Positions 49,964 to 59,943 of a DNA stretch of 64,000 bases are shown piece by piece. Numbering within the stretch: the stretch's first letter is position 1; the number at the start of each line of letters is the position of its first letter. Made by a program: the position numbers and the translations under genes. The notes under the pieces were generated by a model. It was not told the DNA's origin. It saw only the letters and a program-made list of their open reading frames with translations, and searched no databases. The DNA is from Escherichia phage ECO4, in sequence record NC_054911.1; one strand, 5' to 3'.

Positions 49964-50460
49964 AAAGTTTTAATAACCTCTATAATATCGTCTTGAGAAA
50001 GACCGTTAATTAAAATATGATGTTCAGCCGGAGATTTAGAAATTTTAAAGCACGCCGCAACATCTTCTGCCATATCCGATGCGCTACGATTTGGATTACT
50101 AATTCCAAGACGATGCTTTCCTGTCAAAGGATTAACGATGATATAGCATTTGCAGCTATTGATATGAACATTAGGTTGAGTCTGATTAATAAACACTTCA
50201 CAATCATACTTAGCGAGTTGATTTTCTAAAAAGACTTTCATCTCCTCAACCGCATCAGGAAGCATATCACGGGCTTGCTCAAGACGACGATTTCGATATT
50301 CTTTAATGGTCGTTTTCCGCTTGACTTGCTTAGCTAAATCTTTCTTAAGATCGGTGATATATCCAACTCGACGATTTCCTTTGAATACAGAAATCCCATC
50401 TGTAGTATCACCGTATGCTTCAACGACCATTTCAGTAGTAATAAGCTGCAAATCCATCAT
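49954..50460 (-). CDS. alc: Alc, host transcription terminator / unfoldase protein
   Basis: 168-aa ORF, MMDLQLITTEMVVEAYGD; position between spanins and rnlA; early promoter cassette upstream. Confidence 0.85.
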   Translation of the reverse strand: MMDLQLITTEMVVEAYGDTTDGISVFKGNRRVGYITDLKKDLAKQVKRKTTIKEYRNRRLEQARDMLPDAVEEMKVFLENQLAKYDCEVFINQTQPNVHINSCKCYIIVNPLTGKHRLGISNPNRSASDMAEDVAACFKISKSPAEHHILINGLSQDDIIEVIKTLCM

Positions 50461-50488
50461 AAAGTCCTCATGTTATGTCAGTAAGACT

Positions 50489-50518
50489 ACTATAACACAA
50501 CACGAGGGACTTGTAAAC
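50489..50518 (-). promoter_or_regulatory. T4 early-type promoter, copy B of the 54-bp cassette, upstream of alc
   Basis: Identical to 35165-35194; followed by identical leader and SD to the alc ATG. Confidence 0.6.
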
Positions 50519-50521
50519 AGC

Positions 50522-52109
<1,588 letters not shown>

Positions 52110-52131
52110 AATAAAATGGGCCTTGCGGCCC
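52110..52131 (-). terminator. GNRA-loop hairpin plus U-rich tract after nrdB
   Basis: Coding-strand GGGCC-GCAA-GGCCC then ATTTTATT; same hairpin sequence as after wac at 6098-6112. Confidence 0.5.
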
Positions 52132-52136
52132 ACTCC

Positions 52137-53315
52137 TTAAAAGTATTTTTTAAAACTCATCATAACTTTATCATCAACATCATTATCAATCTGTGCAACA
52201 AGATAAGATGACAGTTCTACTTCTTGCGGCGCGGATTGAACATTATCAGAATTAAGGTATTCACGAATCCAAGGATATGGATGTTTAACCGGAGCATCGG
52301 TAATCGGGCATGGAAGACCACACTGTTTCATACGAGATACAGTTAAGTAATCAATAAAGCTCCACATGCTATTTGTATTTAATCCAGGAACATCGCCATC
52401 TTTAAATAAATGAACTGCCCAATCTTTTTCTTGGCGGTTAACTTCCATGAAAATATCAACTGCTTCTTGTTCACACTCTTTGGCAATTTTAACCCATTCA
52501 TCGCCATCAGTACCAGATTGAAGTTGACGAATAATATATTGTGTACCTTTAAGATGAAGCTGCTCATCACGTGCAATAAATTTCATAATCTTCGCATTAC
52601 CTTCCATGATTTCCATGTTCTTATGGAAGTTGAAAGTACATGCAAAGGATACATAAAAACGAATAGCTTCCAATGCGTTGATTACATGCAGACAAAGGTA
52701 AAGAGAACGCATTAGTTCGTATTTGCATTCTTCTACATGCATAAGGCTATTTGAATATGCGTCCAAATCATATTCATTCTCTGAAAAACACCTAAAAATT
52801 TCTTTTGCGTTTTCCCATTCACGAGTTTTCTCAATAACATCATCATAATAACGACCAATAGATTCAGCACGTTTCATGATAGCTTTATCTAATACAATCT
52901 CATCAAATACCTTTGACGGATCAGTATAAAGATTTCGCATGATATGAGTATATGAACGACTGTGAATAGTTTCACTAAAAGTCCATGTAGCAACCCATGT
53001 ATCAAGGCTTGGATCTGAAATTAATGACATAAGTACAGCAGACGGTGCACGACCCTGAATGCTATCTAAAAGTGATTGATACTTCAGGTTATTAGTAAAA
53101 ATATCTTGCTGATACTGGGGAAGCTTGTTAAATTGTGCAGCATCCATCATCAAGTTTACTTCTTCAGGACGCCAGAAAAAACTGATCTGCCGCTCAATGA
53201 GTTCTTCAAATACTCGATGTCGTTGAATATCATATCGAGCTAAACCTAATCCAGAACCAAAGAACATTGGTTCGTTCAAAACATCGACTTGTTGTGTATT
53301 AAAAACTGTACTCAT
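52137..53315 (-). CDS. nrdB: ribonucleotide reductase small subunit NrdB, intronless
   Basis: Continuous 392-aa ORF with R2 diiron/tyrosyl-radical fold features; no intron interruption (T4 reference has one). Confidence 0.95.
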   Translation of the reverse strand: MSTVFNTQQVDVLNEPMFFGSGLGLARYDIQRHRVFEELIERQISFFWRPEEVNLMMDAAQFNKLPQYQQDIFTNNLKYQSLLDSIQGRAPSAVLMSLISDPSLDTWVATWTFSETIHSRSYTHIMRNLYTDPSKVFDEIVLDKAIMKRAESIGRYYDDVIEKTREWENAKEIFRCFSENEYDLDAYSNSLMHVEECKYELMRSLYLCLHVINALEAIRFYVSFACTFNFHKNMEIMEGNAKIMKFIARDEQLHLKGTQYIIRQLQSGTDGDEWVKIAKECEQEAVDIFMEVNRQEKDWAVHLFKDGDVPGLNTNSMWSFIDYLTVSRMKQCGLPCPITDAPVKHPYPWIREYLNSDNVQSAPQEVELSSYLVAQIDNDVDDKVMMSFKKYF

Positions 53316-54010
53316 TTAGAATCCTTAAATTTACATTTATCATAATGCCATCTTAGAGCATTGCCTTTATTAACTTTCTTGCCACAATGCGGACAAGGTG
53401 GATATTCAGTACTTTGCTTAGTTCTCAAAGAAATCAAATCACGAGTTTCTTTAGTATGAGGAACATCTCTTGTTGGAGATATTGTACCATACATAGGATT
53501 AAGCACGCCGACTTTAGCAGCAGCTATATTCTTTTTAGCTTCTTCAGTTTTAGGCTTTCTCATCTTTTTCTTAGTTTCTTCGCTTTTAGCCCTTCCTTTG
53601 GTTGCCGCCGATATTTTGTGTTTGGTTTCTTCTGTTAAACGCAGACCTGTTTTCGCTTTTGACATTTTCAGTCTCGTTTCTTCAGAAATGACCGTACCTT
53701 TGCGAAATTGTGAATTTAACTTCTTTGCATGGGCATATATTTTAGAATGAACTTTATAATGACGTTTCTTAGTTCCTTTCATATTGCACATCATGAAAAA
53801 TGCGAATATAACAGATTTTACCGGATAAATCTTTGATAAAATAGCATGCGCTATAAAATGTTCTCTAGCTGTTAATTCAACTAAATTTTCTTTATCATCA
53901 GAACCTCCCATGCATCTAGGAACTATATGATGTGTCTCTTTATATTCAGATAAAGGTTCCCGAGCCTGAGCTCGGGAAATTAGGTCGTTATAGATTTTTT
54001 GATAATTCAT
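53312..54010 (-). CDS. mobE: HNH homing endonuclease between nrdA and nrdB (MobE-like)
   Basis: 232-aa ORF; HNH motif ETHHIVPRCMGGSDDKENLVELTAREHFIAH; repeated basic EET+xK+S..KG modules; start and stop overlap nrdA stop and nrdB start. Confidence 0.85.
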   Translation of the reverse strand: MNYQKIYNDLISRAQAREPLSEYKETHHIVPRCMGGSDDKENLVELTAREHFIAHAILSKIYPVKSVIFAFFMMCNMKGTKKRHYKVHSKIYAHAKKLNSQFRKGTVISEETRLKMSKAKTGLRLTEETKHKISAATKGRAKSEETKKKMRKPKTEEAKKNIAAAKVGVLNPMYGTISPTRDVPHTKETRDLISLRTKQSTEYPPCPHCGKKVNKGNALRWHYDKCKFKDSK

Positions 54011-56274
54011 TACAATTTACACGCTGCACAATCTTCAGCTTTAGGTGTTTCTAATTCATAGTCATCTGTACCTGACCCATCACGAGTGTTATGATAGTAG
54101 AGGTTTTTTCCGCCAAAGTACCAGAAGTAAAGTAGATCGTCAAGCATTACTGACATTGGTACTTTACCTTTCTCAAATACCGCAGGGTCATAATATGTAT
54201 TCGCTGAAGCTGATTGACATACCCATTTCAGCATAATAGCTACTTGCGTAAGATAAGGCTTATTACCTTTCTTAGCTAATTTCCACGTATAATCATACAG
54301 GTCTATGTTATGCTCAATATTGGGCACGACTTGATTAAAGGAGCCCTCTTTTGATTCTTTAACAGAGACTGGTCCACGTGGAGGCTCGATACCGTTTGTA
54401 CTGTTAGAAACTTGGGAAGATGACTCACATGGCATAAGTGCTGATAATGTGCTATTACGGATGCCAAAGAGCTTAAGGTCTTCCCGCAGCGACGACCAGT
54501 CACAAACGTATTTTGGAGCTGCGATTTGGTCAATCTTTTTATTGTACCAGTCGATAGGTAATTCGCCTCGAGACCAACGAGTGTCTGAATAATATTCGCA
54601 AGGTCCTTTTTCTTTGGCGAGTTTAATGGATGCTTTAATGAGTCCATACTGTAATCTCTCAAATAGTTCATGTGTTAAATCGTTAGCATCTTCATAAGAA
54701 GCAAAGTTACTTGCCAACCAAGCTGCATAGTTAGTAACACCTACACCGAGGTTACGACGCTTTTTAGCTTTTTCTGCTTCAGGAACTGGGTATCCTTGGT
54801 AATCCAAAAGATTATCAAGAGCACGAACCTGGACTTCTGCCAATTCATTAATTTTATCTTGGTCTTGCCAGTCAAAATTATCTAATACGAATGCAGAGAG
54901 AGTACACAATCCAATTTCAGCATCAGGACTATTCACATCATTTGTTGGAATAGCAATTTCACAGCACAAGTTACTCTGACGAATAGGTGCCTTTTCACGA
55001 ATAAACGGAGTATAGTTATTCGTATTATCAATGAACTGTACATAAATCCTTGCTGTTCCTGAGCGTTCAGTCATGAGCAATTCAAATAGTTCACGAGCTT
55101 TAATACGCTTTTTACGAATATTAGGGTCTTTTTCTGCGGCTTCATACAATTCACGGAAACGGTCTTGGTCTTTAAAATAAGAATAATAAAGCTCTCCGCC
55201 CATTTCATGGGGACTGAACAAAGTAATGTAATCGTTCTTTCCAAAACGTTCCATCATCAAATCATTCAGTTGAACACCATAATCCATATGACGAATGCGG
55301 TTTTCTTCTACGCCTTTGTTATTTTTCAAAACAAGAAGATTTTCAACTTCCAAATGCCAAATAGGATAATAAGCAGTAGCAGCGCCGCCACGAATTCCAC
55401 CCTGTGAGCATGATTTAACAGCAGTCTGAAAATGTTTCCAAAAAGGAATAACACCAGTATGGCGTACTTCACCCATGCCAATCTTAGAACCTTCAGCACG
55501 AATCATACCAACGTTAATACCAATTCCAGCACGTTTAGAGATATATTCAACAATTGAAGCGGAAGCCTTATTGATAGACTTTAATGAATCACCTGCCTCA
55601 ATAACAACGCATGAACTAAACTGCCGAGTTGGAGTACGGCAACCAGCCATAATAGGAGTTGGTAATGAAATCTGTCGAGTAGATACTGCTTCATAAAAAC
55701 GGATAACGTGTTTTAATCTATCAACAGGTTCATCTTGATGCAATGCCATTCCAATAGTCATAAATGCAAACTGTGGAGTTTCATAAATTTGACCAGTGGT
55801 TTTATCTTTAACTAGATATTTTTCTTTTAATTGCATCGCCCCGGAATAAGTAAATTCCATATCCCGCTCGTGCTTAATTTTTGATTCTAAAAATGTAATT
55901 TCTTCTGCAGAATATTTTGACAACAATTCAGGGTCGTATTTACCTTCATTTACACAGTAAGAAATATGGTCAATAAATGAACGTGGTTCATACTGCCCAT
56001 AAACATGCTTACGAAGAGCAAACATTAAACAGCGTGCAGCTACATATTGATAATCAGGTTCTTCAACCGAAATAGAATTCGCAGCGGCCTTAATGACAAT
56101 AGTCTGAATATCATCAGTTGTCATTCCATCACGGAGATAAGATTTAATATTTTCATATAATTCATAAGGATCTACTGATGTTCCTTCAGCTGCCCAAGAT
56201 AAAACTTTAATAATTTTTTGTGGGTCAAAGCTCTGAGAAACACCACTACTTTTGATAACATTAATTAATTGCAT
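54010..56274 (-). CDS. nrdA: ribonucleotide reductase large subunit NrdA
   Basis: 754-aa ORF with class I RNR catalytic motifs (NLCCEIA, C-terminal redox cysteines CAACKL); T4 NrdA is 754 aa. Confidence 0.97.
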   Translation of the reverse strand: MQLINVIKSSGVSQSFDPQKIIKVLSWAAEGTSVDPYELYENIKSYLRDGMTTDDIQTIVIKAAANSISVEEPDYQYVAARCLMFALRKHVYGQYEPRSFIDHISYCVNEGKYDPELLSKYSAEEITFLESKIKHERDMEFTYSGAMQLKEKYLVKDKTTGQIYETPQFAFMTIGMALHQDEPVDRLKHVIRFYEAVSTRQISLPTPIMAGCRTPTRQFSSCVVIEAGDSLKSINKASASIVEYISKRAGIGINVGMIRAEGSKIGMGEVRHTGVIPFWKHFQTAVKSCSQGGIRGGAATAYYPIWHLEVENLLVLKNNKGVEENRIRHMDYGVQLNDLMMERFGKNDYITLFSPHEMGGELYYSYFKDQDRFRELYEAAEKDPNIRKKRIKARELFELLMTERSGTARIYVQFIDNTNNYTPFIREKAPIRQSNLCCEIAIPTNDVNSPDAEIGLCTLSAFVLDNFDWQDQDKINELAEVQVRALDNLLDYQGYPVPEAEKAKKRRNLGVGVTNYAAWLASNFASYEDANDLTHELFERLQYGLIKASIKLAKEKGPCEYYSDTRWSRGELPIDWYNKKIDQIAAPKYVCDWSSLREDLKLFGIRNSTLSALMPCESSSQVSNSTNGIEPPRGPVSVKESKEGSFNQVVPNIEHNIDLYDYTWKLAKKGNKPYLTQVAIMLKWVCQSASANTYYDPAVFEKGKVPMSVMLDDLLYFWYFGGKNLYYHNTRDGSGTDDYELETPKAEDCAACKL

Positions 56275-56591
56275 AAGTCCTCAACTTGAAAATCGTCTTT
56301 AAACAATCGGTTAACTATATGAGCTATTATATCACCATGACACGGCTTTGGTTTACATGTGCATCCTAGCCTCATTCCACGTAAAGGCTCTAAATGTGCT
56401 TTAGTTATTTCTCCGGATTTAATTCGACGTATAAAATCTTTTTTGAATAATTCAATGGCAGCCTCCCGGCTGCCAGCATCTTTACCGACGTAATTTCCCC
56501 AAAATGTACCACGGTGAATATTAACATCAAAGTCGGATTTATATTTATTCACTACTCGGCATATACGGCCTGCGCGGTTGTAAGTGTTCAT
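56265..56591 (-). CDS. nrdA.1: hypothetical protein
   Basis: 108-aa ORF between td and nrdA; symbol by synteny. Confidence 0.7.
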
Positions 56592-56820
56592 ATTGTTCTT
56601 CCGTTAAAACAGTAATATCGTAGTAACAGTCAGAAGAAGTTTTAACTGTGGAAATTTTATTATCAAAATACTCACGAGTCATTTTATGAGTATAATATTT
56701 TTTACCATAAATGATAATAGGCTGATTTGGTCCTGGAACTTCTAGCTCACTTGGATTAGGAAGTGTAAAAAGAACTGCACCAGAAGTATCTTTAAATCGT
56801 AAAATCATATATCCTCGCAA
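56545..56820 (-). CDS. nrdA.2: hypothetical protein
   Basis: 91-aa ORF; symbol by synteny. Confidence 0.65.
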
Positions 56821-56831
56821 TTAAATTGAAA

Positions 56832-57143
56832 TTACACCGCCATCTTTCCTTTAATTGGCGGGTGAGATACATAGTTGTTAAGAACAAAATTATGCGGCTT
56901 TGCGAATTGACTCAACCAAAATACCTGTGATTCTGTACCCCATTCATCGAATTCATCTGGAAATTTTAATTGCAATTCGCATAAATCCATAGGTTCACGA
57001 CGCAAAATTTCTTTACATTGTTCTACGTGATTCATATAGATATGAGTATTACCACCAGAAAATATCAAATCTCCCGGAATAAGATTACACATCTTAGCTA
57101 CAATATGAACTAACGTAGCATATGATGCAATATTAAATGGAAG
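56832..57143 (-). CDS. td: thymidylate synthase, exon 2 (103 codons)
   Basis: Begins LPFNIASYA (conserved TS motif) immediately after the intron 3' end; joins exon 1 in frame to give 286 aa. Confidence 0.93.
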   Translation of the reverse strand, partial: LPFNIASYATLVHIVAKMCNLIPGDLIFSGGNTHIYMNHVEQCKEILRREPMDLCELQLKFPDEFDEWGTESQVFWLSQFAKPHNFVLNNYVSHPPIKGKMAV

Positions 57144-58159
57144 CATTATGTTCAGATAAGGTCGTTAATCTTACCCCGGAATTATATCCAGCTGCATGTC
57201 ACCATGCAGATCAGACTATATCTCCAACTTGTTAAAGCAAGTTGTCTATCGTTTCGAGTCACTTGACCCTACTCCCCAAAGGGATAGTCGTTAGGCATTT
57301 ATGTAGAACCAATTCCATTTATCAGATTTTACACGATAAGTAACTAATCCAGACGAAATTTTAAAATGTCTAGCTGCATCTGCTGCACAATCAAAAATAA
57401 CCCCATCACATGAAATCTTTTTAATATTACTAGGCTTTTTACCTTTCATCTTTTCTGATATTTTAGATTTAGTTATGTCTGAATGCTTATGATTAAAGAA
57501 TGAATTATTTTCACCTGAACGATTTCTGCATTTACTACAAGTATAAGCAGAAGTTTGTATGCGAACACCGCACTTACAAAACTTATGGGTTTCTGGATTC
57601 CAACGCCCGTTTTTACTTCCGGGTTTACTGTAAAGAGCTTTCCGACCATCAGGTCCAAGTTTAAGCATCTTAGCTTTAACAGTTTCAGAACGTTTCTTAA
57701 TAATTTCTTCTTTTAATGGATGCGTAGAACATGTATCACCAAACGTTGCATCAGCAATATTGTATCCATTAATTTTAGAATTAAGCTCTTTAATCCAAAA
57801 ATTTTCTCGTTCAATAATCAAATCTTTCTCATATGGAATTTCTTCCAAAATAGAACATTCAAACACATTACCATGTTTGTTAAAAGACCTCTGAAGCTTT
57901 ATAGAAGAATGGCATCCTTTTTCTAAATCTTTAAAATGCCTCTTCCATCTCTTTTCAAAATCTTTAGCACTTCCTACATATACTTTATTGTTTAAAGTAT
58001 TTTTAATCTGATAAATTCCGCTTTTCATAAATACCTCTTTAAATATAGAAGTATTTATTAAAGGGCAGTCCTACAATTTAGCACGGGATTGTCTACTAGA
58101 GAGGTTCCCCGTTTAGATAGATTACAAGTATAAGTCACCTTATACTCAGGCCTCAATTA
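57144..58159 (-). ncRNA. group I self-splicing intron of td (1016 nt)
   Basis: 5' end TAATTGAGGCCTGAGTATAAGGTGAC directly after exon-1 ...TTGGGT, 3' end ...GAACATAATG before exon 2; matches the T4 td intron I recall; contains the I-TevI ORF. Confidence 0.92.
57291..58028 (-). CDS. I-TevI: intron-encoded GIY-YIG homing endonuclease I-TevI
   Basis: 245-aa ORF, MKSGIYQIKNTLNNKVYVGSAKDFEKRWKRH, recognised as I-TevI; located inside the td intron. Confidence 0.96.
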   Translation of the reverse strand: MKSGIYQIKNTLNNKVYVGSAKDFEKRWKRHFKDLEKGCHSSIKLQRSFNKHGNVFECSILEEIPYEKDLIIERENFWIKELNSKINGYNIADATFGDTCSTHPLKEEIIKKRSETVKAKMLKLGPDGRKALYSKPGSKNGRWNPETHKFCKCGVRIQTSAYTCSKCRNRSGENNSFFNHKHSDITKSKISEKMKGKKPSNIKKISCDGVIFDCAADAARHFKISSGLVTYRVKSDKWNWFYINA

Positions 58160-58708
58160 ACCCAAGAAAACATCTACTGATCGTTGATACCACTGCAAAT
58201 CCAAATAGCCATTACGCACATTAAACTGATAGAACATATGACAGGGCGGTAATGCCATTTGATTGATTTCAGCTGGATTCCATGCAGAAACAATTTGACG
58301 CCTATCATTTGGCAGTTTTTTAATACGATCAATAACTTCTATAATTTGATCTACACCGCCAAAATCACGCCACTGTTTTCCATAAATTGGACCAAGTTCA
58401 CCGCTATGGTATCCTAAATCTTTTGCTTGATTTTCGTAATTTTCATCCCAGACTGTTTTGCCTTGAATTAATGAATCGTGCTGAATTAATCGTAAATCAT
58501 TGACATTTGTGCTTCCTGATAAAAACCAAAGCAGCTCAGCAATGCAAGCTTTCCAGGCGAGCTTCTTAGTTGTTACCGCAGGAAAACCTTTAGTTAAATC
58601 CCAGCGTAATTTAGTACCAAACAAAGCAATTGTTCCTGTGCCTGTTCGGTCATCGGTTTCATAGCCATTTTCAAAAATGTCTTTAATTAAATCTTGGTAT
58701 TGTTTCAT
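58160..58708 (-). CDS. td: thymidylate synthase, exon 1 (183 codons)
   Basis: MKQYQDLIKDIFENGYETDDRTGTGT...PPCHMFYQF (TS active-site region); ends ...VDVFLG at the 5' splice site. Confidence 0.95.
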
Positions 58709-58753
58709 TTAGTACCTTATATAAATTATAATACATTTTATGAAGCTAAATAA

Positions 58754-59101
58754 TCAATACGGTTTAGCATCAAATTTTCTCTCAATTTCAGGCGTGAAAT
58801 ATAATTCTTTACCGCGTTTGGAAAAGCGACCAATAATATGATAATTATTCTCATCAAACGTGATATTACCAATATCCATAGCTTTCAACCAAATATCGAT
58901 ATTTCTATCCAGCTTTATGTCAAAATTCCAATACGGAGAACTATTACCGAAAATACTACAAGCGGATTCAGTGAAACAACTGCTATAAATCTTGTCTTTA
59001 GGAACTACTAATTGATAGACACCTTTAATAAACTGAGGACCCTGCCACTTTGGCTGTTTCTCATCTTTTTCTAATAGAATAGGGTAATAATTAAAATTCA
59101 T
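58754..59101 (-). CDS. ORFan (115 aa) inserted between frd and td
   Basis: ATG 59101 lies 19 nt after the frd stop; no recognisable motif; flanked upstream by GC-rich CGCGCGGCGG and downstream by a promoter-like TATTATAAT and SD before td. Confidence 0.65.
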   Translation of the reverse strand: MNFNYYPILLEKDEKQPKWQGPQFIKGVYQLVVPKDKIYSSCFTESACSIFGNSSPYWNFDIKLDRNIDIWLKAMDIGNITFDENNYHIIGRFSKRGKELYFTPEIERKFDAKPY

Positions 59102-59120
59102 ATTTCCGCCGCGCGTTATT

Positions 59121-59943
<823 letters not shown>

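Follow-up and report, generated by a model that had tools for sequence, protein, structure and literature searches.

How did a free-standing endonuclease gene come to separate nrdA from nrdB, the ribonucleotide reductase genes, in a phage whose nrdB carries no intron, and what does it do there? We addressed this question in Escherichia phage ECO4 (NC_054911.1), using a stretch of 64,000 nucleotides, referred to here as the window, whose minus strand carries the locus. The window comes from a Tequatrovirus, i.e., a T4-like phage genome. An initial annotation made without database searches had described a MobE-like HNH endonuclease wedged between nrdA and nrdB.

Gene order at the locus

The minus-strand series reads td, nrdA.2, nrdA.1, nrdA, a 232-aa ORF, nrdB, denA and rnlA, and td is split by a group I intron with I-TevI inside. 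A 4.8-kb query (4801 nt) around the locus was 96.1% identical to T4 and 90-95% identical to hundreds of relatives. The elements of the core region are:

54010-56274, minus strand: nrdA, 754 aa, from the ORF list, with Pfam domains ATP-cone, Ribonuc_red_lgN and Ribonuc_red_lgC
53312-54010, minus strand: mobE, 232 aa (699 nt), T4-type allele of a free-standing HNH homing endonuclease gene
52137-53315, minus strand: nrdB, 392 aa, small ribonucleotide reductase subunit, an uninterrupted ORF
54007-54012, minus strand: UAAUGA junction of nrdA and mobE (nrdA TAA at 54012-54010, mobE ATG at 54010-54008)

The gene nrdA is annotated as such in T4, CAM-21 and T6, and Pfam supports NrdA and NrdB as the two ribonucleotide reductase subunits. 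The ORF list and Pfam agreed on a 232-aa HNH endonuclease between them, as initially annotated and with the same coordinates. Of the ATGA-type overlaps described for both ends of this ORF, the one with nrdB is a genuine 4-nt ATGA overlap (53312-53315), whereas the junction with nrdA is a TAATGA sequence with a 1-nt overlap (base 54010), in which a second in-frame stop, TGA, comes next. The 1-nt and 4-nt overlaps are annotated likewise in T6 and in resequenced T4, and the UAAUGA junction has been described for T4, where translational coupling was proposed (2010 review, PMC2988022).

The 232-aa ORF as a mobE allele

By its sequence the ORF is an allele of mobE, a firmer assignment than the earlier "MobE-like", which we make because of its identity to the T4 gene, its position in the nrdA/nrdB slot and the internal terminator that both genes share (see below). 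The alignment with T4 mobE suggested by the initial annotation gave 97.3% nucleotide identity to mobE of resequenced T4 over all 699 nt, with 229 of 232 residues identical (98.7%) and I30V, G200S and A201T as the three changes. The best nucleotide match was phage mogra (97.7%), and the protein matched PHROG 655, "homing endonuclease", with an E value of 9e-66. Three regions were distinguished in the protein:

53846-53941, minus strand: HNH catalytic motif ETHHIVPRCMGGSDDKENLVELTAREHFIAH, K24-H55, with H28, N42 and H51 as candidate catalytic residues
53414-53686, minus strand: about five NUMOD3-like tandem modules, S109-Q199, presumed extended DNA-binding region
53333-53395, minus strand: CxxC...H...C zinc-finger-like motif (C206, C209, H222, C226) at the MobE C-terminus

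Pfam HNH (PF01844) matched residues 21-44 with 23.4 bits against a cut-off of 21.4. Among PDB sequences MobE gave a weak match to the HNH motif only (E 0.11), which served for aligning that motif alone, other matches being low-complexity noise; in this alignment H27/H28, N42 and H51/H55 correspond to the HNH of the group II intron maturase 6me0_C. The loss of HNH catalytic residues, which the initial annotation had named as evidence against its reading, was thus not observed. Deletion of residues 33-62 of T4 MobE abolishes nicking (PMC2790892), and this segment is identical in the window; near-identity to T4 MobE suggests that the protein is an active endonuclease in this phage as well. The tandem basic EET+xK+S..KG modules noted earlier do exist, and the Pfam match to NUMOD3 (PF07460, 45.6 bits against a cut-off of 20.4, E 6.4e-12) identifies them as NUMOD3 repeats; their number, about five, was counted by eye from the translation. 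The C-terminal motif, which probably binds zinc, aligned in a pairwise BLASTP with the C-terminal finger of full-length I-TevIII (CPYCDKK..RWHGDNCK, E 4e-4).

The T4 reference sequence NC_000866 gives mobE as 141 aa followed by nrdB.1. This display of mobE as two ORFs gave rise to the reading of a decayed pseudogene, which was rejected, as the window and resequenced T4 both have an intact ORF. Alignment traced the split to two extra single bases that are missing from resequenced T4 and from the window, and the resequenced T4 record annotates the same 699-nt mobE ORF as found here. Two types of mobE allele were recognized: the T4 type of 699 nt, present in the window, and the T6 type of 642 nt, which has a different central third.

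Internal terminator and predicted nrdB promoter

Two putative regulatory elements lie within the mobE coding region:

53948-53978, minus strand: internal intrinsic terminator, 9-bp stem with 4-nt loop (53957-53978) and U tract CCUUUAUCU, in mobE codons 11-18
53339-53362, minus strand: predicted nrdB promoter, corresponding to the one annotated in T4 and lying within the 3' end of mobE, with AATGCTCTA as MotA-box-like -35 and TATGAT as -10

The hairpin CCCGAGC-CTGA-GCTCGGG was found exactly where the initial annotation had placed it (53959-53976, read on the plus strand), with a stem longer than noted there, 9 bp at 53957-53978. Its RNA was predicted to fold with -16.7 kcal/mol (z = -3.97), none of 200 shuffled sequences being as stable. 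It is base-for-base identical to the hairpin of T4 and of the T6-type mobE allele, and it already bears a stem_loop annotation in J03968, an early entry for T4 nrdA. In T4 this stem-loop, 27 nt past the mobE AUG, is a weak intrinsic terminator of roughly 30-50% efficiency, mapped by 3' RACE and RNase protection (Wilson & Edgell 2009, PMC2790892). The hairpin of the window likewise lies 27 nt after the mobE AUG, with stem, loop and U tract as in T4.

A scan for terminator patterns found 3 against 3 expected from shuffled sequence, and one for sigma-70-type promoters in 51600-56600 found 17 against 19.0. As both counts are at the level of shuffled sequence they prove nothing by themselves, and the meaning of the hairpin comes from its identity to the mapped T4 terminator. 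Among the sites that the sigma-70-type scan of 51600-56600 listed, none directly preceded the start of mobE on its coding strand. T4 mobE lacks a dedicated promoter and is transcribed together with nrdA (PMC2790892); mobE of the window probably has none either, a reading mostly carried over from T4. A middle promoter for nrdB lies inside the 3' region of T4 mobE (PMC2790892). Its counterpart, predicted by position, was mapped onto the window from the annotation of X04140, and its putative -35 element reads AATGCTCTA as compared with AATGCTTTA in T4; this MotA-box-like -35 of the annotated promoter carries, at 53356, a change from T to C that is synonymous.

An uninterrupted nrdB

The description of nrdB as a single continuous ORF of 392 codons (52137-53315) proved right. 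CAM-21 has nrdB as a single CDS, with which the gene is colinear, and between 53180 and 51892 the two sequences do not differ. The position of the T4 intron is empty:

52640/52641, minus strand: empty intron site, corresponding to the position at which T4 nrdB has its group I intron

In pairwise alignments the T4 intron appeared as one clean gap of 598 nt at this point, and the intron of ELT1 and KAW3E185, which holds a full-length I-TevIII, as a gap of 1091 nt. By ORF continuity and these alignments, a group I intron of the T4/RB3 type is absent from the T4 site in nrdB, and the alignments to CAM-21 and T4 revealed no cryptic intron, the other finding that the initial annotation had named as contrary to its reading. 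Absence was judged by colinearity with the single-CDS nrdB of CAM-21, KarlGJung and T6. An Rfam search of 50000-59500 at a permissive E-value returned no group I intron and missed even the td intron, which is clearly present, so that the negative Rfam result is uninformative on ORF-bearing introns. With the HNH residues kept and nrdB intronless, the initial description therefore stands on both points.

Distribution of mobE and the nrdB intron

The arrangement of mobE beside an intronless nrdB is ordinary and already known, since T6 and many other phages share it. In T6, mobE is followed by an intronless nrdB with overlaps of 1 nt and 4 nt as in the window, and the same combination occurs in LZ7, slur02, KarlGJung and mogra and in slur, VEc20, JEP6 and Lutter phages. 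Beyond T6, mogra and KarlGJung, more than 20 further phages among the matches listed have it; they were taken to lack the nrdB intron because their matches span about 4740 nt for the 4801-nt query. The characterization as an endonuclease without intron cargo is thus accurate as to the missing intron and mistaken in so far as it implied something unusual.

Matches to mobE were found in about 145 phage records, and the nrdB intron is held over most of its length by about 117. The intron query covered 487 nt of intron along with 111 nt of exon 2, and the 761 records that it matched were mostly exon matches; intron carriers were counted as the records with at least 80% query coverage (117). Phages with both mobE and the intron, with either one and with neither appear to exist, those with the intron and no mobE presumably among them. 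The noted features all have a published explanation and involve no new mechanism. For the gene, the control of its expression and its target, as for the mobE-positive, intron-negative state, there is either a publication or an example in a classical phage such as T6.

MobE activity in T4

The T4 enzyme provides the terms in which the window can be read. MobE of T4 nicks the non-coding strand of mobE-less nrdB at codon 42, 124-126 nt into the gene, and drives conversion toward mobE-positive genomes (PMC2790892). Codon 42 is AAG in mobE-less phages and AAA, AAG, CGG or CGA in mobE carriers (PMC2790892). As for the nrdB intron of T4, which is defunct and contains a remnant of I-TevIII, it is only co-converted in trans: MobE homes for its own sake and the intron is a hitch-hiker (PMC2790892). 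Crosses of T4 with T2 yielded progeny with mobE and without I-TevIII, in which the crossover lay in the first 189 nt of nrdB (PMC2790892). The nick site was mapped in T2.

A divergent block around mobE

The nearest match to nrdB of the window is that of CAM-21, a phage without mobE that has a 51-nt nrdA-nrdB spacer instead. Comparison of the two genomes by a base-by-base mismatch map and a 50-nt identity profile delimited the following features:

53181-54184, minus strand: divergent block of 1004 bp, the sole stretch unlike CAM-21, putative homing or gene-conversion tract
54011-54184, minus strand: putative upstream co-converted flank, nrdA 3' end of Mosigvirus type
53185-53202, minus strand: counterpart of the nick-site region, nrdB nt 114-131, a polymorphic stretch
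53176-53180, minus strand: nrdB crossover interval, nt 136-140, within the FFW codons

There was one mismatch to CAM-21 from 56703 to 54185 and none from 53180 to 51892. The block between these segments comprises mobE together with at most 174 nt from the 3' end of nrdA and at most 135 nt from the 5' end of nrdB. Its nrdA flank (54011-54184) is 96-98% identical to many Mosigvirus phages, including the mobE-less JS09; per 50-nt segment, identity was 66-94% to T4, 70-82% to CAM-21 and 92-98% to mogra. On the nrdB side, codon 42 (53190-53192) reads CGG, as in T4, against AAG in CAM-21 and G157lw; the CGG codon presumably resists nicking. Nucleotides 71-140 of nrdB are 100% T4-like and those from 141 onward 100% CAM-21-like, the last difference from CAM-21 being at nt 135 and the first from T4 at nt 141. 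By this change of identity the crossover falls within nt 136-140, some 10 nt beyond the nick site.

The donor block was not found in exact form in any record of the phage collection, where mobE identity reached at best the 97.7% given above, and nt 22-48 of nrdB matched none of five phages aligned; the donor is therefore unsampled, or several events are superimposed. T4 was rejected as the donor on its nrdA flank (66-84% identity, against 92-98% for mogra), and mogra as the exact donor on nrdB nt 129-137, which differ. G157lw, a relative of the CAM-21-like backbone, also lacks mobE and has the block type of CAM-21 at 96.7% identity. Two genomes alone cannot fix gain versus loss, and the direction of the event, like the identity of the donor, is inferred; a gain in the lineage of the window is favoured because CAM-21 and G157lw are both without mobE and share the same type of block.

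Comparison with the closest known systems

With the T4 mobE locus the window shares the nrdA/nrdB slot, the UAAUGA junction, the ATGA overlap, the 9-bp terminator, CGG at codon 42 and the embedded nrdB promoter region. It differs in that the adjacent nrdB has neither intron nor I-TevIII remnant, in the Mosigvirus-type 3' flank of nrdA and in the MotA-box-like element, where a T is replaced by C. The loci of T6, LZ7, slur02 and KarlGJung are alike in slot, overlaps, terminator, the N-terminal HNH part, the C-terminal ~90 aa and the intronless nrdB, but their mobE is a 213-aa allele in which residues about 56-145 (the linker and the first NUMOD3 modules) are replaced by unrelated sequence. In the Mosigvirus mogra, the T4-type 232-aa allele, the intronless nrdB and the type of nrdA 3' flank are the same as in the window, whereas the backbone is about 65-85% identical elsewhere in nrdA/nrdB and nrdB diverges at nt 129-137. 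I-TevIII resembles MobE in its HNH N-terminus, in the C-terminal zinc-finger motif CPxCxKK..RWHxDxCK and in having nrdB as target; beyond the C-terminal motif, pairwise BLASTP detected no overall sequence similarity between the two proteins. Unlike MobE, I-TevIII is encoded in the nrdB intron, at full length in RB3, ELT1 and KAW3E185, and is absent from the window; it cuts both strands, at the site of intron insertion (PMC2790892).

Proposed history of the locus

Taken with what is established for T4, these observations make it very probable that the 232-aa ORF is the T-even mobE acting as it does there, and that the window is the product of a homing event. The gene would be transcribed with nrdA, its translation probably coupled at the UAAUGA junction, while the weak intrinsic terminator over codons 11-18 would hold the level of its transcript down; transcription of nrdB would be regained from the middle promoter within the mobE 3' end. 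During a mixed infection MobE would nick the non-coding strand of a mobE-less nrdB at codon 42, and recombinational repair off the mobE-positive genome would copy mobE and its flanks into the recipient. Carriers would protect themselves by polymorphisms at the nick site, here CGG for AAG at codon 42. An nrdB intron would have no part in this mechanism and would travel as a passenger, co-converted only when the tract extends about 550 nt further into nrdB. In the present case a CAM-21-like Tequatrovirus would have received the T4-type mobE with 174 nt of Mosigvirus-type nrdA and ~135 nt of T4-type nrdB. Since this tract ends ~10 nt past the nick site, the intron could not have come along, even from an intron-bearing donor. 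We give about an even chance to the specific version of this history, i.e., a natural and recent MobE homing across genera, from a donor with Mosigvirus-type nrdA into a CAM-21-like Tequatrovirus, with a tract of ~1 kb whose end lies within 10-15 nt of the nick.

Alternative explanations

The same block could have arisen in the reverse direction, mobE being ancestral and CAM-21 having lost it by a recombination that replaced 53181-54184. A single pairwise block of differences has no direction, and the block of CAM-21 differs from that of G157lw at 12 of 360 positions, slightly above the flanks. We nevertheless consider such a loss unlikely. The known activity of MobE drives conversion the other way; ~10 nt separate the edge of the block from the nick site as mapped, which is what repair started there would predict; and it is the flank of the window that is foreign, Mosigvirus-type in a Tequatrovirus, whereas that of CAM-21 is Tequatrovirus-like and shared with G157lw.

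Two further explanations concern the function of the gene rather than its arrival. One would have mobE retained mainly as a domesticated regulatory cassette that sets the NrdA:NrdB ratio, its endonuclease being irrelevant or lost. The terminator has been given a possible role in coordinating NrdA and NrdB synthesis (PMC2988022), and the embedded promoter has been argued to select against deletion of mobE (PMC2790892), but mobE-less phages manage without the terminator (PMC2790892), the ORF is intact with three conservative changes relative to the active T4 MobE and an unchanged HNH, and the conversion footprint argues for recent mobility, all of which makes a mainly regulatory role distinctly improbable. 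The other, raised by the T4 authors, is that MobE acts indirectly, giving specificity to, or regulating, a different endonuclease encoded by the phage, which nicks nrdB; they left it open because cutting by MobE was never obtained in vitro (PMC2790892). Here too the canonical HNH motif speaks for a nuclease, as do the dependence of the T4 nick on that motif, the deletion of which abolishes the nick in vivo (PMC2790892), and the precedent of HNH homing enzymes such as I-HmuI, which are known nickases (PMC2790892); we regard this last explanation as very improbable.

Significance for the spread of mobE

If the cross-genus homing proposed above is true and typical, MobE would usually spread alone in nature, which would help to explain why mobE (~145 records) and the nrdB intron (~117) are largely uncoupled. 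The conversion tract would be a tidy illustration of the published mechanism and a clean natural example of it, in which the ~1-kb block bounds a homing-associated conversion tract in the wild, with the crossover beside the nick site, and in which a homing endonuclease would have brought Mosigvirus sequence into a Tequatrovirus.

The mobE reading frame and its C-terminal motif

Alignment of mobE in the window (53312-54010) with the T4 reference genome (L001, NC_000866.4; 3799-4499) showed two extra single bases in the reference gene, at alignment columns 362 and 449. Because of these bases NC_000866.4 has two ORFs in place of one, a 141-aa 'mobE' and an 83-aa 'nrdB.1', whereas the 232-aa ORF is intact both in the window and in resequenced T4 (MT984581). 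The MobE C-terminus (53333-53395), CPHCGKK..RWHYDKCK, resembled the zinc finger CPYCDKK..RWHGDNCK at the C-terminus of full-length I-TevIII (record L006, 4517-5326; E 4e-4). Since nrdB is the target of both enzymes, MobE and I-TevIII may share a DNA-binding module.

Promoter-like elements and the nrdB coding region

The 3' region of mobE also contains the counterpart of the annotated T4 nrdB promoter. At 53356, a synonymous T to C substitution specific to the window changed AATGCTTTA to AATGCTCTA within the MotA-box-like '-35' of the T4 nrdB promoter, as annotated in X04140; T4 and KarlGJung, a phage with T6-type mobE, have T at the equivalent position. Another element was noted:

53481-53505, second MotA-like site, TGCTTA-13 nt-TACAAT

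Inside the converted block, nucleotides 22-48 of nrdB (53268-53294) carried six substitutions that replace N8-P9 with Q8-Q9. These were found in none of the five aligned phages (T4, mogra, KarlGJung, CAM-21 and G157lw), which indicates either an unsampled donor or a later alteration within the block. Next to the empty intron site, on its 5' side, nucleotides ~485-615 of nrdB (52700-52830) were hypervariable: the segment aligned with 100% identity to CAM-21 and G157lw, the mobE-less relatives, but with only 20-62% identity to T4, KarlGJung and mogra, from which it also differed in length by 12-40 nt. Either a variable surface loop on R2 or sequence diversification close to where I-TevIII homes may account for it.

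The nrdB stop is directly followed by a hairpin:

52118-52131, GGGCC-GCAA-GGCCC, then AUUUUAUU

Folding predicted a strong structure (-18 kcal/mol, z -4.2), which was absent from the output of a promoter/terminator pattern scan of 51600-56600. Because the hairpin falls within a 144-aa denA ORF with a GTG start, denA probably starts instead at the ATG at 52109. The resulting 136 aa agree with the length annotated for denA of T6, KarlGJung and CAM-21.

The td intron

The td gene is split by an intron with a homing endonuclease ORF:

56828-58708, td, interrupted by a group I intron
57291-58028, I-TevI ORF, carried by the td intron

The intron was missed by an Rfam scan of 50000-59500 at a permissive E-value. 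In CAM-21, by contrast, td has no intron. Base-by-base comparison with CAM-21 revealed dense mismatches in td exon 2 (56853-56989), a pattern resembling that of a second conversion tract associated with homing.
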